Assembly (NCBI GenBank): GCA_017995075.1
Contig: JAGOJO010000008.1
Location: forward strand, 1,011-65,010
Length of the DNA stretch: 64,000 nt
Origin: Bacteroidia bacterium
GTDB lineage: Bacteria; Bacteroidota; Bacteroidia; AKYH767-A; OLB10
Reading direction: 5' to 3'
This document shows, piece after piece, positions 13,717 through 64,000 of this stretch; the stretch's first letter is position 1, and each line of letters begins with the position of its first letter. The notes beneath the pieces were generated by a model. That model made no database searches and had not been told where the DNA came from. It saw nothing but the letters and a program-made list of their open reading frames with translations. A program made the position numbers and the translations under genes.

Positions 13717-14007
13717 ATGAGCCAATACTTTGTATTTAAGCCCGCTGAAGTGCATCCCGGAACAGGTGAACCGCTGGAAGGAAAGTTTATCCGGATTGCA
13801 ACTTATGATGCAAAACTGGCTACTGAAATCTTTAAATCAAGATACGGGAAGGTAGAAGCATTGCAGTTCTGCTACGATGGTTTTGATTCTATGGAAATGA
13901 TTTTGAATAAAACAGAACTGGAAACATTAATACTCACTTCCTCTGGAGTATGTAGCATACTAAACGGGAATGAAATCCAATCATTTATACGCAACTCCGC
14001 CAACTAA
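13717..14007 (+). CDS. Small cytoplasmic hypothetical protein (96 aa), first gene of locus A
   Basis: The track ORF begins at TTG 13687; the first ATG is 13717 (MSQYFVFKPAEV...). No signal peptide. Its stop is 4 nt before the next ATG (14012), which suggests co-transcription. Coding status is not independently supported. Confidence 0.45.
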   Translation: MSQYFVFKPAEVHPGTGEPLEGKFIRIATYDAKLATEIFKSRYGKVEALQFCYDGFDSMEMILNKTELETLILTSSGVCSILNGNEIQSFIRNSAN

Positions 14008-14011
14008 TCTG

Positions 14012-16252: not shown

Positions 16253-16295
16253 AACGCAGAATAATAAAAACAGGAAACAATTTATTCTATATCCA

Positions 16296-17834
16296 ATGTT
16301 CAATCAAACTACTAAAATACTGCTTGTATTTGCGCTCATCATTTTATCCGCAACCGGCAAAGCACAACAACTATCGCTGAACAGCACGAATGTGTTTATT
16401 CATAACACAGCTACGATGTATGTCAGTGGGGATATTAAAACTACTGGTACAGGTTTATTTAATCTCGAAGGAGAGCTTGAATTTACCGGCGACCTCGATC
16501 ATCAGGGAGCTCCGGGTGCCTTTACGGGTGATGGTACAGTAGTACTCTCCGGCGGAGCGCAGCAGCTGGATGGTGTGCAACCAATTGATTTTCCTTCTTT
16601 AGTTCTAAATGGCGCAGGAGATAAAACGTTACTTCGCTCTGTTTCTGTAGGTGGCAGCTCCAATGCCGGGCAGCTTGATCTTCAGCAGGGAACTCTTGTA
16701 TTAAATAATTTCAATCTGTATATCCGGAATGCTGCAGCAGCAGCCATTAATTTCACAAACGGAAGTATACGAGCTGAAGATGTTGATTTTAACAGTAATG
16801 TTTACTGGTACATCGGCACTGCAGCCGGAACGCATGTGGTACCTTTCTCTAATGATGCCGGAGTGATCATTCCAATGGCAATTGACAGGGTGGCAGGAGA
16901 TGTGGATACTGTTCGCTTCTCAACCTATGCCACCAATCCGGCGAATAATCCATTGCCGAATTCTCCTATAACTGTTACGCATATCCGAAATACGAGCGGT
17001 GTAGATAATAGTGCCAACACAGTTGATAGGTTCTGGTTAACACAATGGGATGACCCGGCTGCGCTTGTGCATCTGCGCTTTAACTATGCCACTGCAGAAG
17101 CGCCTGCAAATGGAAACAATAGCCCCAAAGCCCAGCGCTGGAATCCACTCAACGATGGTTGGGATTCACCGATGACCGGTCAGTTTAACTTGTCTCCTTA
17201 CAGTGTAAGTGTGCAGAATGTTGGAATGCCCGGCGTTTGGGCGATTGCGAAAGATGGCAGCCCTTTACCAATTACGTTGCTTGATTTTAAAGCAAAAGCT
17301 AATAAGAAAGGTGAAGTTGATTTAAGCTGGATTACATTGAATGAAAAGGATAATGATTATTTTACAATTGAGCGTTCGAAAAATGGTATAGACTTCGAGC
17401 CTGTTCTTCAGTTAGATGGTGCAGGTACTTCTGCGGTTCCTTTGTTTTATTCAGCAGTAGATAAAAAGCCGTTGAATGGTCGATCTTACTATAGATTGCG
17501 TCAAACAGATTATAACGGAGAGTCGACTGTAACCGCAGCGCAATCTGTATATTTTTCAAATGGTGGTTATGTATCCGTTTCCACTTATCCGAATCCTGCT
17601 GTTGATCAGTTAACTTTTACCTTGGAAGCAGAATTTGATGAGCAGGCTGAGTTAACACTTGAAATTTTTACCGCATATGGACAAAGAGCGTTTATTGGAA
17701 GTCTGCAATCACTGGAAAGCAATACTGAAGGCTCGTTTAATTTGCCAGTGTCATCCTTTGCCCGTGGACAATATCTTTATCGAATACTTTCAGACTCAGA
17801 AGTTCTTGGAAGCGGCAAAATTATTTTACAATAG
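16296..17834 (+). CDS. Secreted T9SS cargo protein, paralogue of ORF 62360..63886
   Basis: ATG 16296 gives the signal peptide MFNQTTKILLVFALIILSATGKAQQ. Blocks shared with 62360..63886 are NTSGVDNSANTVDRFW, PLPITLLDFKA, NDYFTIERSKNGIDFE and YYRLRQTDYNG. The C-terminal T9SS sorting domain is YPNPAVDQLTF...GQYLYRI...GKIILQ. Confidence 0.75.
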   Translation: MFNQTTKILLVFALIILSATGKAQQLSLNSTNVFIHNTATMYVSGDIKTTGTGLFNLEGELEFTGDLDHQGAPGAFTGDGTVVLSGGAQQLDGVQPIDFPSLVLNGAGDKTLLRSVSVGGSSNAGQLDLQQGTLVLNNFNLYIRNAAAAAINFTNGSIRAEDVDFNSNVYWYIGTAAGTHVVPFSNDAGVIIPMAIDRVAGDVDTVRFSTYATNPANNPLPNSPITVTHIRNTSGVDNSANTVDRFWLTQWDDPAALVHLRFNYATAEAPANGNNSPKAQRWNPLNDGWDSPMTGQFNLSPYSVSVQNVGMPGVWAIAKDGSPLPITLLDFKAKANKKGEVDLSWITLNEKDNDYFTIERSKNGIDFEPVLQLDGAGTSAVPLFYSAVDKKPLNGRSYYRLRQTDYNGESTVTAAQSVYFSNGGYVSVSTYPNPAVDQLTFTLEAEFDEQAELTLEIFTAYGQRAFIGSLQSLESNTEGSFNLPVSSFARGQYLYRILSDSEVLGSGKIILQ

Positions 17835-37813: not shown

Positions 37814-38506
37814 ATGGATTTACAATTCTTCGTTGATGTGTTCTTACGAAGGCCATGGCTGCACTCGACTGCTTATGGCTTTTTAATAACCGCTGCATTT
37901 TTTTATAAAAAACTAAATATTTCAGGTCGTTCCTTAGTGCATATTGTTGGAATTTACGGAATTCATACCTTGGTATGTAGTCATTTATCCATTTCAAAGA
38001 TTGAAACAAGCTGGACTTTCAATCTGATTTGCATGCCATTAACATGGATGATTGTCAAGCTTCTTACCGATAATTTATCTGATAAGAAGTTTATAAAATT
38101 ATTTAGGTACATAACGATAATATGTATTAGTGTTCATATTTTAAATATCAGCTTTTTTCAAGGAATCAGATACATCGCAACATACTCGTATTTGACCTTG
38201 CAGGCGGTAAATGCCATAGTCGCATTCTATTATTTAAAAGATCAGATGGATAGTTCGGATCGTCACCCATCCTTAAATGTTCTTAATTGGTTTGCTGCGG
38301 CAACACTTATAGATCACATAACCTCTATTCCAATTACAGCCACATTATCTCAAGATATGATTGGGTTCGCGGATAGAAGATATGCAAGTTTTTTATTTAG
38401 TATTATGTCTTTCGTTTACGGTTGCTGGTACCTGATTATCAGCGCAGGAATTATATGGAACAAAACGGCTCTCAGTTCGCGATTTTTGTCGCGATCATCA
38501 CCGTAG
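37814..38506 (+). CDS. Seven-TM membrane protein (possible sensor module of the downstream kinase)
   Basis: 230 aa with about 7 hydrophobic helices. Its 3' end overlaps the kinase ORF by 52 nt in another frame. Confidence 0.55.
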   Translation: MDLQFFVDVFLRRPWLHSTAYGFLITAAFFYKKLNISGRSLVHIVGIYGIHTLVCSHLSISKIETSWTFNLICMPLTWMIVKLLTDNLSDKKFIKLFRYITIICISVHILNISFFQGIRYIATYSYLTLQAVNAIVAFYYLKDQMDSSDRHPSLNVLNWFAAATLIDHITSIPITATLSQDMIGFADRRYASFLFSIMSFVYGCWYLIISAGIIWNKTALSSRFLSRSSP

Positions 38507-39249
38507 TGCTGTTACTCCTGCTGATGTTATTATTTAACTTATTACTCAGCAGTCGGAACAGGCGGCTTCGGCATCAAAGTGAAGTGCAGCAGATGCAACT
38601 CCATTTCCGGGAGGAGATGAATAGCATTCGTATGGATGTGGCGGAGCAAACCCTGAAGGAGGTGGCGCGTGATTTACATGACGAAGTGGGACAGTTGCTG
38701 ACCTTTAGTATTCTGCAGATCGGTAACCTTCGGAAAACACCGGAAGAAAAGCAGGAGTCGATGATGCTGGAGGTACAGGCGAGTGTGAAGGATGCATTGG
38801 ATTCAGTGCGTAGTATCTCCAGGGGATTGAGTCCCGATATTGTAAATGCGATTGGCCTGAAAGCTTCTATCGAACAGTTAATTGACCGTGCAACGCGCCG
38901 TACCGGATTACCGATACATTTTAACTGGTCGGAAAACTTGAAAATCATTCAGTCTTCTACCAAGGTGGTTACATTTCACATGATTCGTGAATGTCTGACC
39001 AACACGATTCGTCATGCTGAAGCGAAGAATGCCTGGATATCCTTCAAAGAGGATGGGGAGATGATTTCGATGGTGTTCGAAGATGATGGGAAGGGCTTTT
39101 TGGATGACGAAAGCAGGTCAACCTCGATGGGTCTGATCAGTATGAAGCAACGGGCTCAACTGGTCAAAGGGAATTTGGTTATCGCAAGTCGTAACGGTGG
39201 CGGCAGTACGATAACTTTTACTTTCCCGAATAATCAAATGGAATTATAG
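38455..39249 (+). CDS. HisKA_3-type (NarL-class partner) sensor histidine kinase with a single N-terminal TM
   Basis: The track start 38422 is TTG. ATG 38455 gives MEQNGSQFAIFVAIITVVLLLLLMLLFNLLL (one TM). H-box ARDLHDEVGQLL. HATPase_c is seen in ECLTNTIRHA, FEDDGKGF and GGGSTITFTFP. Confidence 0.8.
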   Translation: MEQNGSQFAIFVAIITVVLLLLLMLLFNLLLSSRNRRLRHQSEVQQMQLHFREEMNSIRMDVAEQTLKEVARDLHDEVGQLLTFSILQIGNLRKTPEEKQESMMLEVQASVKDALDSVRSISRGLSPDIVNAIGLKASIEQLIDRATRRTGLPIHFNWSENLKIIQSSTKVVTFHMIRECLTNTIRHAEAKNAWISFKEDGEMISMVFEDDGKGFLDDESRSTSMGLISMKQRAQLVKGNLVIASRNGGGSTITFTFPNNQMEL

Positions 39250-39318
39250 TAAATTCACCGCGTGCATACCGCAAGGATGCAATCCGCATTCATTGTTTAT
39301 TCTAATTGAAGCCTCTCT

Positions 39319-39993
39319 ATGAAAATTAACATCTCCCTTGCCGATGATCACCAACTGGTACGTAAAGGAATTCGTTTACTGCTGGAAAATATTAATGGTT
39401 TTACGGTGCTGTCGGAAGCAGCCAACGGTAAAGAACTGGTTGAACAGATTGAGCTACGCGAACAAAATGGCGATATGCCTGATATTGTGTTAATCGATGT
39501 GAATATGCCGATTATGGATGGCGGAGAGGCGGTGAAAATTTTGCGTGATAAATATGCGGATCTGAAAATTGTTGCCTTGAGCGTGAATGATGAGCTGGAG
39601 ACCATCCGCAATATGATTCGGAAAGGAGCGAATGCCTATCTCTTCAAGGATTCTACACCTGAGATGTTCGAGAAGGTCTTGAAGGAAGTACATGAAAACG
39701 GATTTTACTATAGCGCAGAGGTGGTGAAAAGTCTCACCATGAATGAAAAATCGGCCGAGTCACAACATATGCGTGACCACTACATGCGACTCTTATCTAC
39801 GCTGAGTGCACGCGAAAAGGAGTTCGTGATATTGTGCTGCAGTGAAAAAACCTACAAACAAATCGGCGACGATATGGGCGTGAGTCAGCATACTGTTCAT
39901 GGATACCGCGAAAGCGTTTTCTATAAATTGGAAATTAAAACCCGTACCGGACTCGTAATTTTCGCATTGACTACAGGAATGGTGAAGCTGTAA
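39319..39993 (+). CDS. NarL/LuxR-family response regulator
   Basis: 224 aa. REC is seen in LADDHQLVRKG and DIVLIDVNMPIMDG. The LuxR HTH is seen in LSAREKEFVILCCSEKTYKQIGDDMGVSQHTVHGYRESVFYKL. Confidence 0.9.
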   Translation: MKINISLADDHQLVRKGIRLLLENINGFTVLSEAANGKELVEQIELREQNGDMPDIVLIDVNMPIMDGGEAVKILRDKYADLKIVALSVNDELETIRNMIRKGANAYLFKDSTPEMFEKVLKEVHENGFYYSAEVVKSLTMNEKSAESQHMRDHYMRLLSTLSAREKEFVILCCSEKTYKQIGDDMGVSQHTVHGYRESVFYKLEIKTRTGLVIFALTTGMVKL

Positions 39994-40135: not shown

Positions 40136-41665
40136 ATGTCAGTTCGTACCCGTTTCGCCCCTTCTCCTACCGGACCCCTTCACATGGGAGGTGTTCGTAC
40201 CGCCTTATATGCTTATCTATTTGCAAAGCAACAAAATGGTCAGTTCCTTCTTCGGATTGAAGATACCGATCAGAACCGCTATGTGCCGGGTGCGGAAGAA
40301 TATATCATTGAAGCCCTGCGCTGGTGTGGAATAATTCCGGATGAAGGCGTTGGCTTTGGTGGACCTCATACTCCTTATCGCCAGAGTGAACGAAAAGAAA
40401 AGGGTTTTTATATTCAATACGCCACTCAGTTGCTTGAACAGGGGAATGCGTATTATGCTTTTGATCGCCCGGAAGATCTCGACCTGGCCCGGAAAAATGC
40501 AGAGGAGAACGGAGTGCAGGGGTGGCAATATGATGCACAAACCCGCATGGGAATGCGCAACTCACTTACATTGCCTTCGCAGGAAGTTCAACACCTGCTG
40601 GACCAGGGTACGCCCTATGTGATTCGCCTGAAAGTTATTCCCGGAAACACACTAACGTTTACGGATATGATAAGAGGCGAGGTTAGCTTCGACAGTTCTC
40701 TTGTTGATGATAAAGTATTGATTAAAGCAGATGGTATGCCGACGTATCACCTTGCGCATATCGTTGATGATATTATGATGGGAATCACCCACGCTATCCG
40801 TGGAGAAGAATGGTTACCCTCTGCACCAGCACATATTCTTATTTATCAATATCTCGGTACTCCGATGCCGTTATACGCCCATCTCCCTTTATTGCTGAAG
40901 CCGGAGGGAAATGGTAAGCTCAGTAAACGTGATGGAGATCGTCTTGGATTTCCTGTTTTCCCTTTGCAATGGAAAGATCCTGCCAGCGGAGAAATCTCTT
41001 CCGGTTACAGAGAGAAAGGTTATTACCCGGAGGCTTTCGTGAATATGCTTGCTTTCCTTGGATGGAATCCGGGTACTGAGCAGGAAATATTTACAATGGA
41101 AGAATTGATTCAGGCTTTTTCTTTCGAACGGGTGCAAAAGGCAGGTGCTCGTTTCGACCCTGATAAAGCAAAGTGGTTTAATGAACAACAACTGCGCGCG
41201 CAGAAGGATGAAGAACTGGGCGCAAGGTTTGCCGTCGTATTGAAGGAAAAAATCGGCGCAGACCATCCTTCAGCGTCTCCCGCATTCGCTACGGGTGCAG
41301 TAAAATTGCTCAAGGATCGTGTGCAGTTTGAACATGATTTTTATGAGACCGGGAAATACCTCTTTGAAGCGCCGGAGTCGTACGATGAAAAAGTTATCGC
41401 CAAGCGTTGGAATGACAAGGCAAAGACCTTTTTCCTGGCATTGCCTGATCAGCTTTCAGGTGTCGCCGGCTACACTGCTGAAGAGACAAAATCTGCCTTT
41501 GAACAACTGGCAATAAGTCTGGGACTCAAGCCCGGAGATGTACTGCAGTTGTTCCGGGTAATTGTAAGCGGACACGGAAGTGGTATCGATCTCTTCGGTA
41601 TGGTGGAGTTGCTGGGTAAACAAGAGGTCAACTCCCGCATTCAACGGGCTCTGGATCGATTGTAA
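40136..41665 (+). CDS. gltX: Glutamate--tRNA ligase
   Basis: 509 aa. The class I signature is RFAPSPTGPLHMGGVRTALY (HIGH-type). The KMSKS-type loop is GKLSKRDG. Confidence 0.9.
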   Translation: MSVRTRFAPSPTGPLHMGGVRTALYAYLFAKQQNGQFLLRIEDTDQNRYVPGAEEYIIEALRWCGIIPDEGVGFGGPHTPYRQSERKEKGFYIQYATQLLEQGNAYYAFDRPEDLDLARKNAEENGVQGWQYDAQTRMGMRNSLTLPSQEVQHLLDQGTPYVIRLKVIPGNTLTFTDMIRGEVSFDSSLVDDKVLIKADGMPTYHLAHIVDDIMMGITHAIRGEEWLPSAPAHILIYQYLGTPMPLYAHLPLLLKPEGNGKLSKRDGDRLGFPVFPLQWKDPASGEISSGYREKGYYPEAFVNMLAFLGWNPGTEQEIFTMEELIQAFSFERVQKAGARFDPDKAKWFNEQQLRAQKDEELGARFAVVLKEKIGADHPSASPAFATGAVKLLKDRVQFEHDFYETGKYLFEAPESYDEKVIAKRWNDKAKTFFLALPDQLSGVAGYTAEETKSAFEQLAISLGLKPGDVLQLFRVIVSGHGSGIDLFGMVELLGKQEVNSRIQRALDRL

Positions 41666-41769
41666 GAAGATTTTTAAAACAATACCTCGGAGCTTCACTG
41701 CTTTCTCCGCTTCAACAGGAAAGCATAACAAATCGTAACCCTCAGCGCCAATCTGCGGCCAATTCCCAT

Positions 41770-41777
41770 TATCTTTG
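41770..41777 (+). promoter_or_regulatory. Candidate -7 promoter box (TAnnTTTG) abutting the glnS start codon
   Basis: tatctttg is an exact match and ends 4 nt before ATG 41782. Confidence 0.35.
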
Positions 41778-41781
41778 CAGT

Positions 41782-43449
41782 ATGTCAGTAGAAAAAGGCC
41801 CCAATTTCCTCGAAGAGATTATATCTGAGGATGTAAAAAACGGTAAACATGGTGGACGGGTATTAACCCGATTCCCGCCGGAACCGAATGGTTATCTGCA
41901 TATCGGTCATAGTAAATCGATATGTGTGAACTTTGGATTGGCACAGCAGTTTGGTGGTAAAACCAATTTACGTTTCGACGATACAAATCCGGAGAAGGAA
42001 GAGACGGAGTATGTGGATAGTATCAAGGCTGATATCAAGTGGCTTGGATTTGAGTGGGCCAATGAGTTATATGCTTCCGACTATTTCCCACAACTGTATG
42101 CGTTTGCTCAATCGTTGATTCGTAAAGGATTGGCATATGTAGACGACAGCAGCGCAGAGGAAATTGCCGCCATGAAGGGAACACCGACAGAACCGGGAAA
42201 GGAAAGTCCATTCCGTAGTCGTACCGTGGATGAAAACATGGAGCTGTTTGAACGGATGCGTAAAGGAGAGTTTCGTGACGGGGAGAAAGTACTGAGAGCG
42301 AAAATTGATATGACTTCGCCCAATATGCATTTCCGCGATCCGATTATTTACCGGATTAAACATACGGCGCATCATCGTACCGGCAACGAATGGTGTATCT
42401 ATCCCATGTATGATTTTGCACATGGACAAAGTGATGCTATTGAAAATATAACGCACTCGATCTGCACACTTGAATTCGAAGTACATCGTCCCTTATACGA
42501 ATGGTTCATACAGCAACTCGAACTCTTCCCGAGTCATCAGTATGAGTTTGCACGACTCAACCTGAATTATACGGTGATGAGTAAACGTAAACTTTTACAA
42601 CTCGTCAAAGAGGGACATGTGAGTGGATGGGATGATCCACGGATGCCAACCATCAGCGCTTTGCGTCGCCGAGGTTTCACGCCGGAGAGTATTCGCAATT
42701 TTGCAGAACGGGTTGGTGTAGCCAGAAGAGAAAATATTATTGACGTAGGATTTCTGGAATTCTGTGTAAGGGAAGATCTGAATAAACGCGCTACACGGGT
42801 GATGGCGGTACTGGATCCGGTGAAACTCGTTATTGAAAACTATCCGGAAGGTCAGACAGAAATGCTGACAACAGAAAACAATACCGAAGCAGAAGATGCG
42901 GGTACCCGTGAAATTCCGTTCAGCCGTGAATTATTTATTGAGCGTGAAGATTTCATGGAAGAACCACCAAAGAAATTTTTCAGACTTGGTCCGGGGAAAC
43001 TCGTACGATTGAAAAGTGCGTTTATTGTAGAATGTACCGGATTTGAGAAAGATGCAAGCGGTGAAATTTCGGTAATCCATTGCCGTTACTATCCTGAAAG
43101 TAAAAGCGGACAGGATACAAGTGGATTATCGCCAAAGGGTGTTATTCATTGGGTGAGCGCTCCTCATGCGGTCAAGGCAGAAGTGCGTTTATACGACCGC
43201 CTTTTCAAGGTGGAAGACCCATCATCCGAAGAAGGTGATTTCAAAGAGTATATTAACCCCGACAGTCTGCATATCACAACCAATGCCATGGTAGAACCAT
43301 CACTAAAGGATGCGAAGCCCGGACACTTCTTTCAGTTTATGCGCAAAGGATATTTCGTTCCTGACCCTGACGGAACCTCAGAAAATCCGGTGTTTAACAG
43401 AACCGTTGGACTAAAGGACAGTTTCACAAAGGCTGCTCCATCATCATAG
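41782..43449 (+). CDS. glnS: Glutamine--tRNA ligase
   Basis: 555 aa. Recognised from RFPPEPNGYLHIGHSKSI, TNLRFDDTNP and the VMSKRKL loop. The length and C-terminal anticodon-binding beta-barrel region are typical of GlnRS. Confidence 0.9.
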   Translation: MSVEKGPNFLEEIISEDVKNGKHGGRVLTRFPPEPNGYLHIGHSKSICVNFGLAQQFGGKTNLRFDDTNPEKEETEYVDSIKADIKWLGFEWANELYASDYFPQLYAFAQSLIRKGLAYVDDSSAEEIAAMKGTPTEPGKESPFRSRTVDENMELFERMRKGEFRDGEKVLRAKIDMTSPNMHFRDPIIYRIKHTAHHRTGNEWCIYPMYDFAHGQSDAIENITHSICTLEFEVHRPLYEWFIQQLELFPSHQYEFARLNLNYTVMSKRKLLQLVKEGHVSGWDDPRMPTISALRRRGFTPESIRNFAERVGVARRENIIDVGFLEFCVREDLNKRATRVMAVLDPVKLVIENYPEGQTEMLTTENNTEAEDAGTREIPFSRELFIEREDFMEEPPKKFFRLGPGKLVRLKSAFIVECTGFEKDASGEISVIHCRYYPESKSGQDTSGLSPKGVIHWVSAPHAVKAEVRLYDRLFKVEDPSSEEGDFKEYINPDSLHITTNAMVEPSLKDAKPGHFFQFMRKGYFVPDPDGTSENPVFNRTVGLKDSFTKAAPSS

Positions 43450-55743: not shown

Positions 55744-57666
55744 ATGTTCTCAGGATTTTCCCTACGTACTCTCTTTATTTGCACATTATCGATCCTTGGT
55801 TTTAATAGTGGATCCGCTAACGCTCAAGGCTTCAATTCTAATCCTATTACATGGACTTCCCCCATCGGCGGACATTATGGCGGGTTCGGTGCCTTGCTTG
55901 GGTATAACTATTTCTCGAATCTCGTTATCAGTAATGGTTCGTCGCAGGCATGGAATACCGCAGATATTAATGGTGACGGTCTTGTTGATCTTATTGTTAC
56001 GGCTGAGTATTATGCTCCTTATACTACGGCACTTCAATTCGGTGTCGGAACCAATCCTCATTGGAAAGTTTATTTGGGAAATGGAACGGGTTTCACTACA
56101 TCAGCTATAACCTGGAGTACTCCTGTTGGGGGTCAATATGCATTTTCAATTGGAAGTTATGGCTATATCGGCACAAGTGGGTTCTCTAACCAGGAACAGG
56201 ATTCACAAACATGGTCATTAACGGATATGAATAACGATCAGAAGCCGGATCTGGTGATTTATACCAGGTATGTTCCATCCATTAGTAACGATCAGCAGTT
56301 CAATGCCGGGACATCCCCATATTGGAAAGTATATTTAAATAATGGAAGTGGTTTCAACGCCTTGCCAATTAACTGGTCAACTCCGGTAGGTGGATCATAT
56401 CTCTCTTCCGGTGCCAATGTTGGTTATCTCAACGAATCCGGTTATGCCTGTTCAAATAATGCGAACTGTCAATCATGGACGCTTTCGGATTTTACTGGTG
56501 ATGGAAAACCTGATTTGGTGATTTCTTCTCAACATGATGTGAGTATAGGTGCACCAGTGCAGTTTGGCGTAGGTGTGAGCCCGTATTTTAAAGTGTATGA
56601 AAATACAGGCACATCTTTTTCATCAACACCACTAATCTGGAACACTCCGGTTGGCGGAAAATATTCTGTATCCAATGTAAATTATGGATACCAGACTACG
56701 ATAGGAGTGTCTTACAGTGGAAGTGACAGCAGTCAGAACTGGGCTATAGGTGATGCTGATGGAGATGGACTGAAGGATCTGGTACTCTGTGCGCATTATA
56801 ATTCAAGTGTCAGTGCGCCTGAACAATTCGGAACTACCGGGTCAAGGCATTGGAGAATACATCGCAATACCGGGTCTGGATTTGACCCGAACATTACCTA
56901 TTGGTCAACTCCCGACGGAGGAAATTATACGGCTAGTGGACAGGATTTAGGCTTTACATTGCCCCTTGTAAACGGATTGAATTTTTACGACAGCAGCCAG
57001 ACCTGGACCACTACGGATATAGACGGTGACCATAAACCGGAATTGGTGGTGATGTCGGAATATTTTGCAGTCTATAATTGTTATCGTCAGTTTGGTGTAG
57101 GTAGCAATCAGTTCTGGAAAATATACGCAAATAATGATAGTGGATTTGCTGCTACACCTGTCATTTGGAGTACTCCTTCAGGTGGAGCAATCATTAACAC
57201 AGGTTTTGTCCAGGGTTTTGTGAATGAGGTGGGCTATAGTAATCAGTACTCCGGATCAGATTCCTACAGAATTGCCGATATGAATGGTGATGGTAAGCCA
57301 GATTTAACTGTTTTTAGTGAGTACAATACCTCTCAAAGTTATCCTCAGCAATTCGGCGTTCCAACAGCGCCTTACTGGAAGGTGTATTTGAATAATACTG
57401 TTCCTTTATCAATAGAGGAAACAGTTATTCAAAACAATAAATTGATCGTCTATCCAAATCCATGTACCGCGTATATTAAATTTAAGACAGTTGAATTGCT
57501 TACAGGTGCAACATATCATCTGTTTAATGTAGAGGGGAAATTAATTCGTACTGGTGCAATTGTTGATCTGGAAAACATCATCTGGACTACTGACCTCGCA
57601 AGCGGAGTTTATTTTGTACAACTTTCAAATTCTCCATCTGCTGCTACATATTTCATACATGAATAA
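55744..57666 (+). CDS. T9SS-secreted FG-GAP/VCBS-like repeat protein
   Basis: 640 aa with a signal peptide. There are six ~80-aa units, each with W(S/N)TP.GG ... D.(N/D)GD(G)KPDL ... QFG.G..P(Y)WKVY.N.GSGF. The T9SS CTD is VYPNPCTAYIKF...GVYFVQL. Confidence 0.75.
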   Translation: MFSGFSLRTLFICTLSILGFNSGSANAQGFNSNPITWTSPIGGHYGGFGALLGYNYFSNLVISNGSSQAWNTADINGDGLVDLIVTAEYYAPYTTALQFGVGTNPHWKVYLGNGTGFTTSAITWSTPVGGQYAFSIGSYGYIGTSGFSNQEQDSQTWSLTDMNNDQKPDLVIYTRYVPSISNDQQFNAGTSPYWKVYLNNGSGFNALPINWSTPVGGSYLSSGANVGYLNESGYACSNNANCQSWTLSDFTGDGKPDLVISSQHDVSIGAPVQFGVGVSPYFKVYENTGTSFSSTPLIWNTPVGGKYSVSNVNYGYQTTIGVSYSGSDSSQNWAIGDADGDGLKDLVLCAHYNSSVSAPEQFGTTGSRHWRIHRNTGSGFDPNITYWSTPDGGNYTASGQDLGFTLPLVNGLNFYDSSQTWTTTDIDGDHKPELVVMSEYFAVYNCYRQFGVGSNQFWKIYANNDSGFAATPVIWSTPSGGAIINTGFVQGFVNEVGYSNQYSGSDSYRIADMNGDGKPDLTVFSEYNTSQSYPQQFGVPTAPYWKVYLNNTVPLSIEETVIQNNKLIVYPNPCTAYIKFKTVELLTGATYHLFNVEGKLIRTGAIVDLENIIWTTDLASGVYFVQLSNSPSAATYFIHE

Positions 57667-57886
57667 GTTAGAAGAGCTTCATAATATTTGCTCGAGATTT
57701 GAAGAAAGATAAACTAAAATGAGAGGATAGTCTGGCTCAAATTCATCATGCCTTTTTACAACGTTCAATTTGTTTATTGGATGGGTTGCCTGAAATAGCG
57801 AACGGATGTCACTCCACAGTCGTTGCATTTTAGTAGGAGAACAAGCATACATTGCGTTTAACTTTTTTCCTTTCAAGTGAGTATTT

Positions 57887-59593
57887 TTATTTTATAGAAC
57901 CAGAAGTGTCGGTTTTTAAAGAATCATCTAACCGCTTTTCAATTTCTGCCATTCGGATATTGATCGTATTTATTCTTGCTTCGAGTTCTTTGTTGGTTAC
58001 AACCAAAAGTTCATTAGCTGAAGCCAATTCCTGTACTGCTTTTACCAGAGGAACAACGAATTCAGCATAACGCACGGCATATGTATCTTTTTCATTTGAA
58101 GGTTTTTGAACCCCACTAAAATCATAGCCGGTTTTATCAGCTGCAACTTCCACTTCTTGTGCTACAAAGCCGGTATAGCGAGTTTGTGTTTTAACTTTGA
58201 AGTTGTGGTCTGCTGCTATCAAAGAATCAACGTTACCGTTTGGTAATATATGATTGAGATAGGAAATCACATTCAAGTTATAGGATACAGGACGCAATGC
58301 CAGAATGAATGGCAGGCCAGGAATATCTTCCTTAATGTCATTTTTAAATCGTCCGTCTGATATTACACTCCAGTTTACTGCGCCGCCAATTGCTGTAACA
58401 AGTGCATTCCCGATCTTCACCTGATTGCTTGCGGTCACGACAGCATTGTAGCCAATCGCCGTTGAATTGGAAAAATTGTTGAGATTCGCTTCTGCTAAAG
58501 CACCAACAAAAGTACAATTCGAATAAGTTGAACGAATCATACCTGCCTGGTAACCCAATGCAAGATTATTATTTCCGGTATTATTTTGCAATGTATTTGC
58601 ACCAATGCCTGTATTGTTTGATCCGATAGTATTGGAATACCCGGAAAAGTAACCCAACCCACAATTGTAATTCCCGGTAGTATTTCCGGCTAATGCTGAC
58701 TCACCAAAAGCTGAATTGAAGTTTCCGATATTATTATTAAACAGGGAGGAATATCCAAATGATGAATTAGAAGCACCGGTTGTATTTAGTTTTAAAGACC
58801 AGTTTCCGTAACCGCAATTATAATTTGCTGTATTATTCAGTAACGATTCATATCCGTAAGCACAGTTAAATGTACCTGCAGCTGCAGTAGAGAACATAGC
58901 ATGGTAGCCGAATACCTGATTGTAATTCCCGCTTAAAGCCGTAGTTAATGCACCAGTCCCAACTGCTGTTGATTGTACTATGCCTGTAGCATTTTGCATA
59001 GCATAAGAGCCAATGGCTGTGTTCGAATACGAGTTAGCAGAATTCTGTAGAGTGAAGGATCCTACCGCAGTATTAAATTCCCCATCCAAATTTGAAAAGC
59101 CGCTTTTGAATCCGAGATATACATTGTCAAAACCGGAAACAGTATTGTTAAATCCGGATTGGAACCCTAGAAATAAATTACGTCCAGTATAAGGCCCATC
59201 TATATTATCAATGTAGCCACTTTTTAAATTATTAATTTTAAATTGAATCGGTTGGTTGTCTGTAGTTCCGATAAAGTTAGCAGGACCATTTCCTGAATTT
59301 CCGTTAAGGCTCCATCCACTTACACCATTTCCTATTGATTGCCATGCACTGCCATCGAAGTACATAAATTTATTTCCGGTAATATCGTATACCAATAATC
59401 CGGTTGCGGGAGCGACAATGGCAACCCGTTGAGCGCTCGTCAATCTTGGAATCAAAATTCCTTTATCAGTTGATACCATATCCCAAAGCGCCGATGCATG
59501 AGGAGTAGGGTTGTTCACACCAATATTTTGTGCTGATAGTGGAGACGTAATGTTTAACAAAACGAATAACAGAAGCAGAGTGCGTGTTTTCAT
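57887..59593 (-). CDS. Tail-fibre-like protein: head motif + Asn/Gly-rich repeat shaft + C-terminal S74-type intramolecular chaperone domain
   Basis: 568 aa with signal peptide MKTRTLLLLFVLLNITSPLSAQ. The head motif is IGVNNPTPHASALWDMVSTDKGILIPRLTSAQRVAIVAPATGLLVYD. The shaft has degenerate repeats (NTAIGSYAMQN, NSAFGESALAGNTTGNYN and similar). The S74-like block ISDGRFKNDIKEDIPGLPFILALRPVSYNL...YTGFVAQEVE...YAVRYAEFVVPLVKAVQEL lies at about nt 58019-58363, followed by a short coiled-coil. There is no T9SS CTD. Confidence 0.8.
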   Translation of the reverse strand: MKTRTLLLLFVLLNITSPLSAQNIGVNNPTPHASALWDMVSTDKGILIPRLTSAQRVAIVAPATGLLVYDITGNKFMYFDGSAWQSIGNGVSGWSLNGNSGNGPANFIGTTDNQPIQFKINNLKSGYIDNIDGPYTGRNLFLGFQSGFNNTVSGFDNVYLGFKSGFSNLDGEFNTAVGSFTLQNSANSYSNTAIGSYAMQNATGIVQSTAVGTGALTTALSGNYNQVFGYHAMFSTAAAGTFNCAYGYESLLNNTANYNCGYGNWSLKLNTTGASNSSFGYSSLFNNNIGNFNSAFGESALAGNTTGNYNCGLGYFSGYSNTIGSNNTGIGANTLQNNTGNNNLALGYQAGMIRSTYSNCTFVGALAEANLNNFSNSTAIGYNAVVTASNQVKIGNALVTAIGGAVNWSVISDGRFKNDIKEDIPGLPFILALRPVSYNLNVISYLNHILPNGNVDSLIAADHNFKVKTQTRYTGFVAQEVEVAADKTGYDFSGVQKPSNEKDTYAVRYAEFVVPLVKAVQELASANELLVVTNKELEARINTINIRMAEIEKRLDDSLKTDTSGSIK

Positions 59594-59642
59594 AGTTTAC
59601 CGATTAGAATACAACGGTAAAAATAATTGCTTCTGTTTCCTG

Positions 59643-59665
59643 TGAAAATACTACTTAAGTGGTAC
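59643..59665 (-). promoter_or_regulatory. Shared upstream element, copy 1 (in front of the fibre gene)
   Basis: The plus strand reads tgaaaatactacttaagtggtac. This is near-identical to 63917-63935 and contains the near-palindrome TACtA-CTTAAG-TgGTA. It lies 50-72 nt upstream of ATG 59593. Confidence 0.35.
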
Positions 59666-59679
59666 AATATTTGTCTGCA

Positions 59680-60315
59680 CTATGAAGATTTCCCATATAC
59701 CTTATTGATCGCTTCCGTTCGCGAGTTAACTTGAAGCTTTTCATAGATATTGTAAACATGTTTTCGTACAGTTTCAATACCGATCTCTTTTCGAGTTGCA
59801 ATTTCTTTATACATTAACCCCTGCGATAAAAGATCCAATATCTCTCTTTCACGTGCAGTTAACATTTCATTATGTATAGCAGATGTTTTTTTAGAGGCAA
59901 AAGAGTCCACTACATATCGGGCAATAGATGCACTCATGGGTGAGCCGCCTTGGGTGATTTCACGTATCGCTGATTTGAGTTGGTCCCCTGAGTTGTTTTT
60001 CAATATATAGCCTGTCGCACCATTACAGAGTGCCTGGAAGATGAACCCGGGATTTTCAAATACTGTGCAGACCAGAAATTGGATTTTCGGACGTAATTGC
60101 TTGGCAATACCGATGCATTCAATGCCATTTTTACCAGGCATATTAATGTCCATCAATACTACATCGCAATCATAGTTTTCCCATGATTTTAAAAAACTAT
60201 CACCGTTGGCAAAGGATTTCACAACTTGAAAATCACTTTCACCTGACAAAATACCTTCGGTCATTTCCCGGATTTCTTTATCGTCTTCAACAAGTATTAT
60301 GCGAATTACTTTCAT
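59680..60315 (-). CDS. NarL/LuxR-family response regulator
   Basis: 211 aa. REC is seen in ILVEDDKEIRE and DVVLMDINMPGKNG. The LuxR HTH is seen in LTAREREILDLLSQGLMYKEIATRKEIGIETVRKHVYNIYEKL. Confidence 0.9.
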   Translation of the reverse strand: MKVIRIILVEDDKEIREMTEGILSGESDFQVVKSFANGDSFLKSWENYDCDVVLMDINMPGKNGIECIGIAKQLRPKIQFLVCTVFENPGFIFQALCNGATGYILKNNSGDQLKSAIREITQGGSPMSASIARYVVDSFASKKTSAIHNEMLTAREREILDLLSQGLMYKEIATRKEIGIETVRKHVYNIYEKLQVNSRTEAINKVYGKSS

Positions 60316-60330
60316 ACTAGAATAACTATA

Positions 60331-62295
60331 TTATATCGACAATTTTCCTTGTGCAATAACACTACATCCATTACCTGGCGAACTTCGGATTTCAAGAACA
60401 TTTCCGTGCTGTACCATCCGTTGTTTCATATTGAGCAAACCGTTACCTTGCCGGCGATCTTCCGCTTGAGTATCAAAGCCTATTCCATTGTCACGAATTT
60501 CTAAATAGAAGTGACGGGAATCTGCTTTGAATATTATATGTACAGTACTCGCTTCACTGTATTTTATGACATTATGTATAGCCTCTTTCAACACAAGATA
60601 AATATTTCTTTTGATTTCCGGATGAATCGGCATATTGTTGGTTTCTTTTGGGAACTCGATTACATATTCTATATTGCTGTTTTCAAGTAGCTGTAAGACT
60701 GTAGATTTCATATAACCTATAAGACTCCCCAGATGATCATTTTCCGGATGAATTGCCCATACGATTTCTGCAAGCGACGCACTAACATTTCTGGAATATG
60801 TCATCACTTTTTCGAGCGCTTCTTTTATTCCCGGATCTGCTATTTTATTTCGTGTAATATCACTTAACATTGTGATTTTCGTCAAACTACTTCCAATATC
60901 ATCATGAATATCGCGGGCAATCCGTACTCTTATTTGTTGAGCCTCCCGCTGCTTTTCTGTTTCGACTAGTTCTTGTTGAGTTTGTTGGAGTGCCATCAAC
61001 GTTGATTCAAGAGCTACATTGTTTTCGGATAGGATTTTGCTGTAGCTGTTTCTCTCGCGGTATCGTTGAAAAATGAAGAGGACCAGAAGGAAAAGTAATA
61101 TTCCAACGGCAATCGAGAAATTCCGGATTTGAACTTGTCTTGTGTGCTCCACAAGAGCATTTATTCGCTCTTTCTCAAATTCAAAATCCATTTGAGCTCG
61201 GGTAAGGGATCTGGCTTTAATCAGATTGACGTCTTCTGAGTATTCATTGAAAGAGGAATCAATGGTTTGTAATGCTGCTTCAGGTGATCCCTCAGCTGCA
61301 AGGATAAGACTTAGATATTTATGGATATTGAAATCATCTTCCTTGACCTCTGTTTCACGAGCCATATTCATTGATTCAGTCAGGAGATTTCTGGCCTCAT
61401 TTAATTTTCGATCCTTGAAGTACACAATTGCCTGATAGGTATTGTATGTCATGATGTGCTCGGGAAATTCAAGTTCATGCACCAACTCTTTGGAGATAGA
61501 TAAGTACTTTCTCGCAGAATCGAACTCCTGAAAATAGACAAATATTTCAATAAGATCAAGTGTAGATCCACTTAAAAGCGGTAAGTAACCTGTTTGATTG
61601 TATAGATCATAAGCCTGTTTCTTCCAATAGTAGGAACTATCGTAATTGACTTTCTTGTCGAAGTAGTAAGATCCATAAATAGCCAACGCTCCTCCTATGG
61701 CATTCTTGTTTTCAGTGTTCTTTAAAATAGTATATGCTTCCTGAGCATAAGAGAAAGCTTTATCGTAATCTTCCAACTCACGATGGGAAGATGCGATGTA
61801 GGATAAAGCTGTTCCGATATTTTGATTACTTTTAATTGCGCGCGCCTTCTCAAGGTATTTATGAAAGTATTTTAATTGTCCCGTGTAATCATCTTTGTCG
61901 AAATAAGAAATACCGATGTTTTTGTAAAATATCATTTCATATTTATCCAGTAGAAGTAATTTGTTTTTATCGCGGACAGATGATTTAAATTTCAATGTTT
62001 GATTTAATCCAAGATCTGCATACTTCCTCATCGAATCTGATTCACCAAGTTGATAGAATTCCGCACATAGATACCAGATGTCTACCAAATGCATGGAGTC
62101 TTTTTTCTGAAAGGTTCCTTTTTGTTGAAAGGTAATTACCCGTGATCTTAGACTGTCGACACTATTACTTTTTCCGTATGCAACATTTATTATCAGGGAA
62201 AAGAATATACTTAGAAAAAATATACTTTGATTTGGGAAATAGATGCAAGGCGCAGAAGAAGCTGATTTTTTATTTGTCTCGAGAATATAATACAT
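60331..62295 (-). CDS. TPR-repeat sensor histidine kinase (HisKA_3 + HATPase_c)
   Basis: 654 aa. After an N-terminal anchor there is a ~330-aa TPR-like helical repeat region. Then one TM (FSIAVGILLFLLVLFIF), a coiled-coil, H-box ARDIHDDIGSSL, and HATPase_c (LKEAIHNVIKYS, RDNGIGF, GNGCSV). Confidence 0.85.
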   Translation of the reverse strand: MYYILETNKKSASSAPCIYFPNQSIFFLSIFFSLIINVAYGKSNSVDSLRSRVITFQQKGTFQKKDSMHLVDIWYLCAEFYQLGESDSMRKYADLGLNQTLKFKSSVRDKNKLLLLDKYEMIFYKNIGISYFDKDDYTGQLKYFHKYLEKARAIKSNQNIGTALSYIASSHRELEDYDKAFSYAQEAYTILKNTENKNAIGGALAIYGSYYFDKKVNYDSSYYWKKQAYDLYNQTGYLPLLSGSTLDLIEIFVYFQEFDSARKYLSISKELVHELEFPEHIMTYNTYQAIVYFKDRKLNEARNLLTESMNMARETEVKEDDFNIHKYLSLILAAEGSPEAALQTIDSSFNEYSEDVNLIKARSLTRAQMDFEFEKERINALVEHTRQVQIRNFSIAVGILLFLLVLFIFQRYRERNSYSKILSENNVALESTLMALQQTQQELVETEKQREAQQIRVRIARDIHDDIGSSLTKITMLSDITRNKIADPGIKEALEKVMTYSRNVSASLAEIVWAIHPENDHLGSLIGYMKSTVLQLLENSNIEYVIEFPKETNNMPIHPEIKRNIYLVLKEAIHNVIKYSEASTVHIIFKADSRHFYLEIRDNGIGFDTQAEDRRQGNGLLNMKQRMVQHGNVLEIRSSPGNGCSVIAQGKLSI

Positions 62296-62359
62296 CTGTA
62301 TGGATTAGTATAGATGATACTTAAATTGACAAAAATTGTATTGCCGAAAGTTAAGTAAA

Positions 62360-63886
62360 TTATTGACGTAATATTTTAAGTAGATGGCTTTGTCTGGCTT
62401 CAGGTGTGATGATTTCGAACATATAATTTCCTGTTTCGAGGGTATTTACGGGTATATGAGCGAGGCCGTTCATTGATTCTCCATGGTTGCATAATACTTT
62501 TTTCCCAGCCAGATCATAGATGCAGTATTGAAAAGTATTGCTTTGGGATGTAGTGATGTAAATATCGGTCGAAGCAGGATTTGGAAATAGTAGAAAGCTA
62601 TTAACTTGGGTGACAGGGCTTACCACGATCGTTTTAGAATAGGAATACTGGCCATCAAAATCTGTTTGTTTCAAACGGTAGTATAGAATATTATTAGGAG
62701 CCGTGAAGTCAAATAAATTGTATACTAAAAGTGTAGTTGAATTTCCAGACCCATTCCTGAGACCAATAGTCTCAAATAGAATTCCATCTTCGCTACGCTG
62801 CACTTCAAAATAATCATTATTGGTTTCTGTAAGTGTAGTCCATTCACAAATAACTTCGCTTTCAGAATTTCTTCGGGCGCTAAATGAAAGAAGCTCTACC
62901 GGCAATGGAGTAGCGTTCATAGTTATTGCCCATGTTTGACCACTTAATACGCCCGGTATAGATGGAAGAACGCCTGGTACCATCACCTGTTGAGCGACTG
63001 GATTTGTCTGGCCCAAAAGAGGCATTGACCAGCCGGCATTTAATACATTCCAGGGTTGTGCTCTCATTTGCACATTTCCATTTGCAGCATTTTCACTGGC
63101 TGCATAACGGAATATATAATTGCTGGCCCCGGCATTTTCGATATGCCAGAATCGGTCAACTGTATTAGCACTGTTATCTGCTCCACTTGTATTGTTAACA
63201 TGGTTAATTGTAAATGGTGTAGTAGGATAGGGAGTATTATCTGGTAATGTCTGATATGTGGATATTCGCAGGGAACCTGTTTGAAATCCTGTCGGTGGCG
63301 ATGTTGTGAACCCAAATGAAATATCTTCGCCCGCAGAATTACCAAATGGAATTGTATGAATACCGGCACCAACATTTACCCACCATACTTTGGCACTATT
63401 CGATGTTTCTTCACTGAGAATGTATCCGGTGGTCCGCTGTATCCCACCTATTGCCGGATTAAAAACAGAGAGGGTATTTGATTTGAGGGAAAGGATGGCA
63501 TTTTTCAGATTTAGTATTCCATTATAGGGTGAGGTAGACCCACCGGTGGACATATCTATATTCATCACTTTTGTACCATTCTGCAGTTGGAGATGGTAGA
63601 ACGTGGTGGGAAATGCACCTGTAATATGTTGAATATTGCCATCCAACAGAATAGTTCCCTTTGAATTGTTAAACAGGCCGGATCCTGCATTGTTGATCCA
63701 GTTTCCCGTGAGGGTGATGGTACCTTCATTTACTAATGTGGTGGTACCTGTTGATTCAATATCTCCGTTAACCGTAAAGATTACCCCGGCGTTAATTGTA
63801 ATCTGAACATCATTATTCGTCAGCAGTTGTGCTGTACAATTTTGTACGATGATGAAGGAGGAGAAACAGAGAATCCACTTTTTCAT
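62360..63886 (-). CDS. Secreted T9SS cargo protein, paralogue of ORF 16296..17834
   Basis: 508 aa with signal peptide MKKWILCFSSFIIVQNCTAQ. Blocks shared with 16296..17834 are NTSGADNSANTVDRFW, PLPVELLSFSA, NDYFEVQRSEDGILFE and YYRLKQTDFDG. The T9SS CTD is LFPNPASTDIYI...GNYMFEI. Confidence 0.75.
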   Translation of the reverse strand: MKKWILCFSSFIIVQNCTAQLLTNNDVQITINAGVIFTVNGDIESTGTTTLVNEGTITLTGNWINNAGSGLFNNSKGTILLDGNIQHITGAFPTTFYHLQLQNGTKVMNIDMSTGGSTSPYNGILNLKNAILSLKSNTLSVFNPAIGGIQRTTGYILSEETSNSAKVWWVNVGAGIHTIPFGNSAGEDISFGFTTSPPTGFQTGSLRISTYQTLPDNTPYPTTPFTINHVNNTSGADNSANTVDRFWHIENAGASNYIFRYAASENAANGNVQMRAQPWNVLNAGWSMPLLGQTNPVAQQVMVPGVLPSIPGVLSGQTWAITMNATPLPVELLSFSARRNSESEVICEWTTLTETNNDYFEVQRSEDGILFETIGLRNGSGNSTTLLVYNLFDFTAPNNILYYRLKQTDFDGQYSYSKTIVVSPVTQVNSFLLFPNPASTDIYITTSQSNTFQYCIYDLAGKKVLCNHGESMNGLAHIPVNTLETGNYMFEIITPEARQSHLLKILRQ

Positions 63887-63916
63887 GGGATAAAATTATC
63901 CTGATTAAAAATCATC

Positions 63917-63935
63917 TGAAATACTACTTTAGTGG
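63917..63935 (-). promoter_or_regulatory. Shared upstream element, copy 2 (in front of the T9SS cargo gene)
   Basis: The plus strand reads tgaaatactactttagtgg. Against 59643-59662 it has 18 matches, 1 mismatch and 1 single-base gap (aligned by hand). It lies 31-49 nt upstream of ATG 63886. Confidence 0.35.
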
Positions 63936-64000
63936 AAGAAAAACATGGTAGACGATCGTTTTTACGCCCTAAAGCGAGTATTTATTGCTATTTTGCCGGA

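Follow-up and report, generated by a model that had tools for sequence, protein, structure and literature searches.

A two-component system (TCS) encoded between two genes for putative surface proteins raises the question of whether it controls both of them. Such a locus, here called locus B, is present in a stretch of 64,000 nucleotides from a Bacteroidia bacterium (contig JAGOJO010000008.1; the whole analyzed stretch is referred to as the window). On the minus strand it encodes, in the order of transcription, a cargo protein of a type IX secretion system (T9SS), a sensor kinase with tetratricopeptide repeats (TPR), a NarL-type response regulator (RR) and a fibre protein with a Peptidase_S74 (S74) domain. 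The analysis points to a regulatory and structural cassette of five genes in two transcription units, each preceded by the same operator-promoter module. We give this reading a probability of about 0.7. Related loci are referred to by L numbers.

Two predicted promoters with a common putative operator

The open reading frame (ORF) listing of the window gave four minus-strand ORFs at 62360-63886 (cargo, 508 aa), 60331-62295 (kinase, 654 aa), 59680-60315 (regulator, 211 aa) and 57887-59593 (fibre, 568 aa). The gaps are 64 nt between cargo and kinase, 15 nt between kinase and regulator and 86 nt between regulator and fibre. A preliminary description of the locus had given the same coordinates and gaps, which were reproduced exactly, and its domain labels for the four proteins were upheld by Pfam and NCBIfam searches. 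Its inventory of four genes was incomplete, as a conserved fifth ORF of 57 aa is located 3' of the fibre gene at 57679-57852(-).

The cargo and fibre genes had been described as sharing an upstream element, and this element is real. The sequence CCACT[T/A]AAGTAGTATTT was found at 59646-59662(-) and 63919-63935(-), and these were the only two matches in 64 kb with three mismatches permitted. Both copies belong to a predicted operator in the form of a 7-2-7 inverted repeat. Operator 1, TTCCACTAAAGTAGTA, is located 5' of the cargo gene at 63922-63937(-), and its conserved 17-mer, CCACTAAAGTAGTATTT, runs from 63935 to 63919 on the minus strand. A predicted -7 box, TAATTTTA, follows 20 nt past the 17-mer at 63891-63898(-), with the cargo ATG 4 nt further on. 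Operator 2, TACCACTTAAGTAGTA, is located at 59649-59664(-), 15 nt past the stop codon of the regulator gene. Its 17-mer (59662-59646) is again followed after 20 nt by a predicted -7 box, TATTTTTA, at 59618-59625(-), and the fibre ATG is 24 nt past that box.

The same 16-bp dyad, with the consensus T[A/T]CCACTnnAGT[A/G]GTA, was present at both promoters of every cassette examined. A search with the pattern CCACT-N3-GT[AG]GTAT gave exactly two matches in each cassette locus, one before the cargo operon (or before the peptide operon of the relatives described below) and one in the gap between RR and fibre. No match was found in 1.25 Mb of other Bacteroidota loci. The dyad 5' of the cargo or peptide operon was kept in L085, L086, L088, L090, L212 and L213-L218. 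Exactly 20 non-conserved nucleotides separated the motif from a TAnnTTT[A/G] box in all ten promoters measured, which were taken from five cassettes. The boxes were assigned by the sequence TAnnTTTG, which we take to be the -7 consensus of Bacteroidota. A scan for sigma-70-type promoters found sites no more frequently than in shuffled sequence, the model not being applicable to Bacteroidota. By reckoning from the -7 box, the dyad would abut the -33 region, with its centre about 42 bp 5' of the predicted start of transcription. The distance of 4 nt from the predicted -7 box to the cargo ATG was found in the window, L085, L086 and L212, and the cargo mRNA is therefore probably leaderless. The called start of the L086 cargo gene is probably 21 nt too far downstream.

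The dyad resembles the operator of NarL. An engineered high-affinity 7-2-7 site for NarL has the sequence TACCCCTAAAGGGGTA (PMC4549865), and the dyad, TACCACTAAAGTGGTA, differs from it at one symmetric position. NarL activates napF and yeaR from 7-2-7 sites located at about -40 to -49, and at some other 7-2-7 sites, such as that of frdA, it represses (PMC4549865). The latter case raises the alternative that the dyad is a repressor site, at which the regulator, in its phosphorylated or unphosphorylated form, blocks RNA polymerase until the signal relieves the repression. The dyad directly abuts a conserved TATTT at the expected -33 position, as could be expected of such a site. However, the 16 bp are located upstream of both predicted core elements, and not over these elements or the start, in a position that matches the activating sites at napF and yeaR. 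The -33 element is also sub-consensus (TTTc/t versus TTTG), which would be typical of activator-dependent promoters. Repression was therefore considered unlikely, and activation of both promoters by the regulator is the preferred explanation.

The regulator and the recurrence of the cassette

The regulator is a NarL-class protein with a Response_reg domain (PF00072, 79 bits) and a GerE domain (PF00196, 56.8 bits). The receiver (REC) residues D11/D12, D56, T84 and K106 are present and conserved in orthologues, and the recognition helix is ETVRKHVYNIYEKL. NCBIfam searches assigned the protein to no named equivalog, the best scores being 117.7 bits for MctR (cut-off 300) and 117.4 bits for NarL (cut-off 250). 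With 77-82% identity the regulator is the best conserved protein of the cassette, compared to 45-57% for the cargo and 53-72% for the fibre. The 15-nt gap between the kinase and regulator genes and their co-inheritance suggest phosphotransfer from the kinase to this regulator.

In L085, L086 and L088, the contigs of the closest cargo homologues, the cargo gene is followed by those for a TPR kinase, a NarL-type regulator and an S74 fibre and by the small ORF. The cargo proteins of these loci are 57%, 53% and 48% identical to that of the window, and the flanks are unrelated in each. The gap between cargo and kinase is only 12 nt in L086, which was counted toward co-transcription. A scan of metagenomes added the same layout in L116/L129, and the full cassette with an added peptide/ThiF module was found in L090, L096 and L215. 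The preliminary description had suggested looking across genomes for co-occurrence of the kinase/regulator family with the fibre/cargo pair, and the gene order does recur in at least five further lineages of the window type, with flanks that differ in each. Five additional lineages have a peptide/ThiF variant.

The regulator was linked to the dyad through its recognition helix. The metagenome collection was scanned for the complete promoter architecture, which returned at least 120 stretches, and 121 motif matches were taken into a classification by their surroundings. A NarL-type RR gene adjoined 48 of the 121 matches: 8 were in cassettes, 36 were directly 3' of an orphan regulator and 4 were directly 5' of a regulator. 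The orphan RRs are only 44-47% identical to the cassette RR, yet the two groups, both of which adjoin the dyad, have the helix ETVRKHVY[N/H]IYEKL in common. Other helices were found in three regulators of the NarL type that have no dyad nearby. Among loci that were picked independently of the motif, a dyad was located within 400 nt of 7 of 8 helix-bearing RRs, compared to 3 of 13 others. One of these three exceptions is a one-residue variant of the helix inside a cassette, and the other two adjoin the dyad of another operon. The covariation of helix and dyad is the strongest argument for the cassette regulator binding the predicted operator, and binding is strongly supported by it.

The orphan-RR loci (36 of the 121 matches) have a layout of their own. 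An rsmG-like gene is followed by a NarL-type regulator with the helix ETVRKHVYHIYEKL, the dyad TACCACTAAAGTGGTATTG and a -7 box. Examples are L098, L102, L117, L128, L136, L138, L139, L148, L153, L159, L163, L167, L175, L179, L187, L197, L198 and L204. The -7 box is followed by about 90-170 nt with no ORF, containing a CCAUUAACCU-like box and terminating in a GC hairpin with a U-run, and then by a convergent M1-peptidase-like gene. The ORF-free stretch looks like a regulator-controlled small RNA. It gave no match in Rfam and no consensus fold.

The existence of these regulators raises a second alternative, in which a paralogous regulator from another locus, for instance an orphan RR, is the main controller of the dyad promoters, and the embedded TCS has another target or is a passenger. 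A distinct orphan RR family with the same helix and dyad would provide such a regulator, and two TCS-less loci, L212 and L214, have retained the dyad 5' of a cargo-fibre operon. On the other hand, a TCS whose RR bears the helix (a one-residue variant in L217/L218) was co-inherited with dyad promoters in at least ten lineages and in varied contexts, and most of these lineages have a second dyad in the gap past the RR gene. The window also contains no other good dyad site that could be an alternative target. Control by another regulator was considered very unlikely.

The reading of locus B as a cassette controlled by its own TCS has to be weighed against several points. Since L212 and L214 have kept the dyad, a regulator from another locus can serve the site, and as orphan RRs with the same helix exist, proteins other than the cassette RR may also bind it. 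As many as 73 of the 121 motif matches could not be classified. The position at -42, and with it the choice of activation over repression, depends on the predicted -7 box. Surface localization and physical association of fibre and cargo, as the structural part of the cassette, are likewise presumed from sequence, and no T9SS C-terminal domain (CTD) was found in the fibre. The preliminary description had proposed a self-contained, signal-controlled fibre cassette. Gene order, dyad spacing and the covariation of helix and dyad across genomes agree with this proposal, which had overlooked the fifth gene and the promoter architecture.

Sensor kinase, small protein and putative surface proteins

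The kinase was found to contain TPR_12 at residues 124-192, HisKA_3 at 456-518 (PF07730, 38.5 bits, cut-off 24) and HATPase_c at 563-648 (PF02518, 43.5 bits, cut-off 26.4). The H-box RDIHDDIGS includes His464, and RIARDIHD[D/E]IGS is kept in five orthologues. The protein had been described with a single central transmembrane helix, leaving the position of the TPR region ambiguous. A second hydrophobic segment, a signal-anchor, is present at the N-terminus (about residues 23-41), in addition to the central segment at 390-408, which is followed by positive residues. All orthologues have the same arrangement of an N-terminal hydrophobic segment, a TPR region of about 345 aa, one transmembrane segment, basic residues and the kinase core. 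Because the TPR region (about 42-388) lies between the signal-anchor and the second transmembrane segment, the TPR domain of about 345 aa is predicted to be periplasmic. The kinase matched no named NCBIfam equivalog (best UhpB, 81.7 bits versus a cut-off of 408; NarX, 32 versus 578). It belongs to a compact family of about 47 full-length relatives, and its TPR sensor is 43% identical to the counterpart in L090. A literature search for a TPR kinase with a LuxR regulator in Flavobacterium gave no match.

Other two-component systems were observed in the window and in related loci. A second pair of HisKA_3 kinase and NarL-type regulator is located in the window at 37814-39993(+); the helix of its regulator differs (HTVHGYRESVFYKL), and a dyad is absent. 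The kinase of this pair is divided over two overlapping ORFs in different frames, one multi-transmembrane (37814-38506) and one with the kinase core (38422-39249), which indicates a frameshift or an assembly error. A second, divergent TCS with a TPR kinase and the regulator helix ETVRTYCRNIYDVL is located beside the cassette in L090 (1776-7259(-)) and L215 (837-3594(-)). In L090 it is followed by a 910-aa protein with S74 and its own T9SS CTD, that is, with fibre and secretion signal in one chain.

The small fifth ORF has the C-terminal motif DYxxI[IL]xxLxxxLxE[IV]F. Using a profile from seven copies, it was found 3' of the fibre gene in nine TCS-containing lineages (window, L085, L086, L088, L090, L096, L213, L215 and L216), and in L085, L086 and L088 its length is 49-62 aa. 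No signal peptide and no transmembrane segment were found in it, and searches of Pfam, PHROG and PADLOC gave no match. It persists in L216, in which the fibre is a 90-aa remnant, and is absent from the TCS-less L214; it consequently tracks the TCS and not the fibre. The small, presumably cytoplasmic protein may, speculatively, be a feedback modulator.

The cargo protein begins with a signal peptide (MKKWILCFSSFIIVQNCTAQ). An AF2 model with a predicted local distance difference test score (pLDDT) of 89.7 showed a beta-solenoid at about residues 20-160, then a beta-sandwich (165-320) and an FN3-like module (330-420), with the type A CTD at 433-497. The CTD was matched by Por_Secre_tail (PF18962, 37.3 bits, cut-off 27) and TIGR04183 (30.7 bits, cut-off 23). 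A sequence search of the PDB matched solved CTDs and no other part of the protein, and in fold searches the PDB and BFVD yielded no more than generic matches to FN3, Ig, L-domains and CTDs, with TM-scores below 0.25. The family of the cargo comprises 1225 matches, every one from Bacteroidota. Secretion by the T9SS, cleavage of the CTD and attachment to the surface would be expected of a type A CTD protein. Several further CTD proteins are encoded in the window, which points to a T9SS in this organism.

The FN3-like module before the CTD (about residues 325-425), with the pattern PLPVELLSF...W.T.SE.NNDYF.VERS.DG..F...YYRLKQTDFDG, recurs in the same position in T9SS proteins of 400-2700 aa (loci L005-L084), which number in the hundreds and are unrelated in other respects; 594 of 600 candidate stretches were confirmed. 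In L040 (3801-10540) and L042 (4078-10540) a T9SS protein of 1000-1170 aa with this module is encoded directly 3' of a TCS made up of a HisKA_3 kinase and a regulator of the NarL type (helix YDTVRAHMKKIYEKL). The dyad of the cassette type is absent there, and these loci may be a parallel case of a dedicated TCS beside a T9SS cargo.

The fibre has a Sec signal peptide, and its Peptidase_S74 domain (PF13884) was detected at residues 412-487 with 26.4 bits (cut-off 22). Residues S412, D413 and K417 were invariant in 45 homologues. A monomer model with a pLDDT of 73 showed a small N-domain (24-90), a beta-solenoid with a 17-residue period (116-400), the S74 domain (412-505) and a long C-terminal helix (509-564). 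The S74 fold resembled the MyRF ICA domain (TM-score 0.55-0.61) and 3GUD (0.54), with a weaker match to 3GW6 (0.23-0.26); a PDB search with the sequence found no relatives. The fibre is presumably trimeric and folded by the S74 domain as a self-cleaving chaperone. The N-terminal domain, called fibN, was present in 119 of 120 fibre homologues. Conserved adjacency of the two genes suggests a partnership of fibre and cargo. A docking of fibN onto the cargo, which would have been suggested by an absence of fibN from fibres with a CTD of their own, was considered and dropped, as the CTD probe missed even cases flagged by Pfam. Homologues of the fibre carry the JGI name of trimeric autotransporter adhesin. 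This was rejected for the fibre because the YadA anchor barrel is lacking, S74 being the only Pfam domain. We take its NxAxG-type repeats to resemble YadA heads, with no other likeness to YadA. A precomputed annotation labels the fibre as PF26696 ("PTL_trimer"), and no paper mentioning PF26696 was found.

The phage-like character of the fibre raised the question of whether the locus is a degraded piece of a prophage or tailocin, in which a tail-spike gene and accessory genes lie next to a TCS by chance. S74 is a phage-type intramolecular chaperone, fibre residues 374-546 match the phage tail-spike phrog_4636 with an E-value of 9e-54, and the repeats match PHROGs of virion structural proteins. 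The surroundings argue otherwise. No other phage gene is located nearby. The fibre, with its Sec signal peptide, is a member of a very large chromosomal family of Bacteroidota (more than 5200 matches). The cargo, the small ORF and the sensor domain of the kinase had no PHROG match, and the catalytic core of the kinase had only a weak one. The five-gene order and both operators were also kept across lineages. A prophage remnant was thus considered to have a next to negligible probability, and a cellular fibre under the control of the TCS is the preferred explanation. A PADLOC search found no match to a defence system at the locus.

A pair of fibre and cargo had also been described at a second locus of the window, locus A, where the two genes were said to be adjacent. 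By tblastn, locus A consists of ORFs at 13970-16252(+) and 16242-17834(+), which overlap by 11 nt. Its cargo is a true paralogue of 530 aa, 35% identical to the locus B cargo over its full length. The "fibre" of 760 aa, which precedes the cargo, has only about 130 N-terminal residues in common with the locus B fibre and no S74 domain. The claim of the same pair was thus correct for the cargo; the fibre is similar in its N-terminal domain only, and the order is opposite. No dyad or upstream element was found at locus A with three mismatches permitted, and no regulator is located nearby. The 760-aa protein had PHROG tail-fibre matches (phrog_9942 and phrog_18345), and as its homology begins near 14075, the true start may be downstream of 13970. 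Another candidate for locus A, 40136-43449, was rejected, its ORFs being GluRS and GlnRS.

In L212 and L214 the dyad is followed by the cargo gene and directly by the fibre gene, and in distant cargo relatives from reference genomes the fibre is located directly 5' of the cargo, in both cases with no TCS. The insertion of kinase and regulator is consequently a feature of one clade. The earlier proposal that a fibre/cargo pair has been split by a TCS fits L212 and L214, while the comparison with locus A, on which it had been based, suffers from a fibre that differs in kind.

The convergent neighbour of locus B, at 55744-57666(+), encodes a 640-aa FG-GAP-repeat protein with a T9SS CTD. Its stop codon is 12 nt from that of the small ORF, which leaves no space for separate terminators. 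In L086 and L088, too, FG-GAP/CTD proteins are encoded no more than 8 kb from the cassette, at differing positions.

Peptide genes in related loci and the proposed circuit

Sampling that started from the kinase gave four members on contigs absent from the cargo and fibre lists. All four loci encode 2-3 small ORFs, a ThiF-family enzyme of 342-344 aa, the kinase and the regulator, and in two of them (L215 and L218) the S74 fibre follows. The small ORFs encode peptides ending in GGWDxN. Kinases of this family are usually accompanied by ThiF and such peptides, a link that the preliminary description had overlooked. Genes for ThiF and such peptides were found in eight related lineages (L090, L096, L208, L213 and L215-L218), with the following coordinates: L090, 7446-8020 and 9568-10596; L213, 2990-4435; L215, 3779-6928; L216, 5142-6784; L217, 5420-6937; and L218, 5593-7008. 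The peptides are encoded by 2-3 tandem genes, are 44-56 aa long, with about 52 aa as the size in most relatives, and consist of a leader, MLIExLIIFI...N, and a C-terminal (R)GGWDxN. The 15 peptides that were read directly, from six loci, all had a hydrophobic N-terminus and the invariant C-terminal GGWDxN, with Asn as the last residue. The ThiF-family enzyme has an N-terminal extension of about 94 aa. No ThiF or GGWDxN gene was found in the window, L001, L085, L086, L088 or L116. In L213 (4184-7203, in the complete 3.25-Mb metagenome-assembled genome CP064983.1) no cargo gene is present, the TPR kinase is divided over five or six short ORFs and ThiF over two, due to either pseudogenization or long-read frameshift errors.

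The dyad precedes the first peptide gene, and peptides, ThiF, kinase and regulator are located behind the same dyad promoter, a topology that resembles autoinduction. The GGWDxN peptides and ThiF are a candidate for an undescribed family of signalling peptides or of peptides that are made by ribosomes and modified after translation (RiPPs). Among known ThiF-like RiPP enzymes, MccB acts on a C-terminal Asn and IndF joins the Trp at position -4 to the C-terminal carboxylate. Similar to these, the relatives of the cassette combine a ThiF enzyme with a C-terminal Asn, as in MccA of the microcin C system, and a Trp at -4, as in IndA. In contrast to these systems, no transporter, protease or immunity gene was seen, and neither the window nor the closest cassettes contain the genes for ThiF and the peptides. 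A recent review of ThiF RiPPs mentions neither Bacteroidota nor a linkage to two-component systems. A tentative idea, to which we give rather low credence, is that the TPR kinase acts as the receptor in peptide-based signalling between cells in Bacteroidota. The window would then encode an orphan receptor left after loss of the peptide and ThiF genes, which would switch on the fibres when it meets a ThiF-modified peptide, produced by neighbouring cells or from another place in the same genome.

In the proposed circuit, the first transcription unit would consist of a dyad promoter, cargo, kinase and regulator, and the second of a dyad promoter, fibre and small ORF. From what is known of the families, the kinase would sense a ligand through its periplasmic TPR domain and autophosphorylate on His464, and the phosphate would pass to Asp56 of the NarL-type regulator. 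The phosphorylated regulator would bind the 7-2-7 repeat as a dimer, for which the support is strong, and binding would activate both promoters. As the kinase and regulator genes are themselves located behind the dyad promoter of the first unit, positive autoregulation would follow, and the circuit is probably autoregulated. The outputs would be a T9SS-secreted, surface-anchored beta-solenoid/Ig protein and a Sec-exported, self-chaperoned fibre, and the two would probably make up a surface fibre or adhesin that can be induced.

The proposed circuit combines features of several known systems. It shares with NarX-NarL of E. coli the HisKA_3 kinase, the REC-GerE regulator, the 7-2-7 operator and a promoter-proximal site like those of napF and yeaR. 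It differs in its sensor, a predicted periplasmic TPR array and not the four-helix nitrate-binding domain of NarX, in its targets, which are surface-protein genes, and in its promoters of the Bacteroidota -33/-7 type. FimS-FimR of Porphyromonas gingivalis, from the same phylum, likewise has a sensor whose periplasmic TPR domain is flanked by two membrane segments. The signal of FimS is not known, and FimS-FimR positively controls a surface filament (PMC11053733). Residues 122-272 of the cassette TPR region gave a weak local match to the FimS model NF053520 (26.3 bits, E 2e-6), and an assignment of the kinase as a FimS orthologue was rejected, as the cut-off is 600 bits. The cassette further differs in having an S74 fibre and a T9SS cargo as putative targets and not type V pilins, in the position of the TCS between its targets and in an identifiable operator. 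As in class II LuxR/lux-box promoters, a dyad of 16-20 bp is located near -42 and the regulator gene is inside the regulated operon, giving positive feedback, and in the relatives candidate signal-peptide genes head the operon as in LuxR autoinduction. However, the cassette regulator would depend on phosphorylation and not on binding of an acyl-homoserine lactone, and a signal synthase is absent from the window. The fibre is similar to phage endosialidases and tail-spikes with S74 in its domain score above the Pfam cut-off, its Ser-Asp...Lys residues, its ICA fold and its PHROG homology. It differs from them in having a Sec signal peptide, as a cellular protein, and in that its gene belongs to a chromosomal regulatory cassette beside a T9SS substrate and not to a virion module. 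Control of a T9SS cargo and of a self-chaperoning fibre of the phage type by a NarL-class TCS, through a NarL-like operator, is a well supported prediction.

To our knowledge, almost nothing is known about how environmental Bacteroidota regulate their T9SS substrates and surface filaments, beyond PorXY/SigP and, in P. gingivalis, FimSR. The compact circuit proposed here gives a precise prediction, with one regulator, one 16-bp operator, two promoters of fixed geometry and a defined recognition helix. Common control of a phage-type self-chaperoning fibre and a T9SS cargo suggests an inducible surface appendage made of two proteins. The family of loci that combines dyad, GGWDxN peptides, ThiF, TPR kinase, regulator and fibre could be the first candidate in Bacteroidota for RiPP-like peptide signalling by way of a periplasmic TPR kinase. 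Such signalling, if confirmed, would bear on what is detected by TPR sensor kinases such as FimS, a question of long standing.

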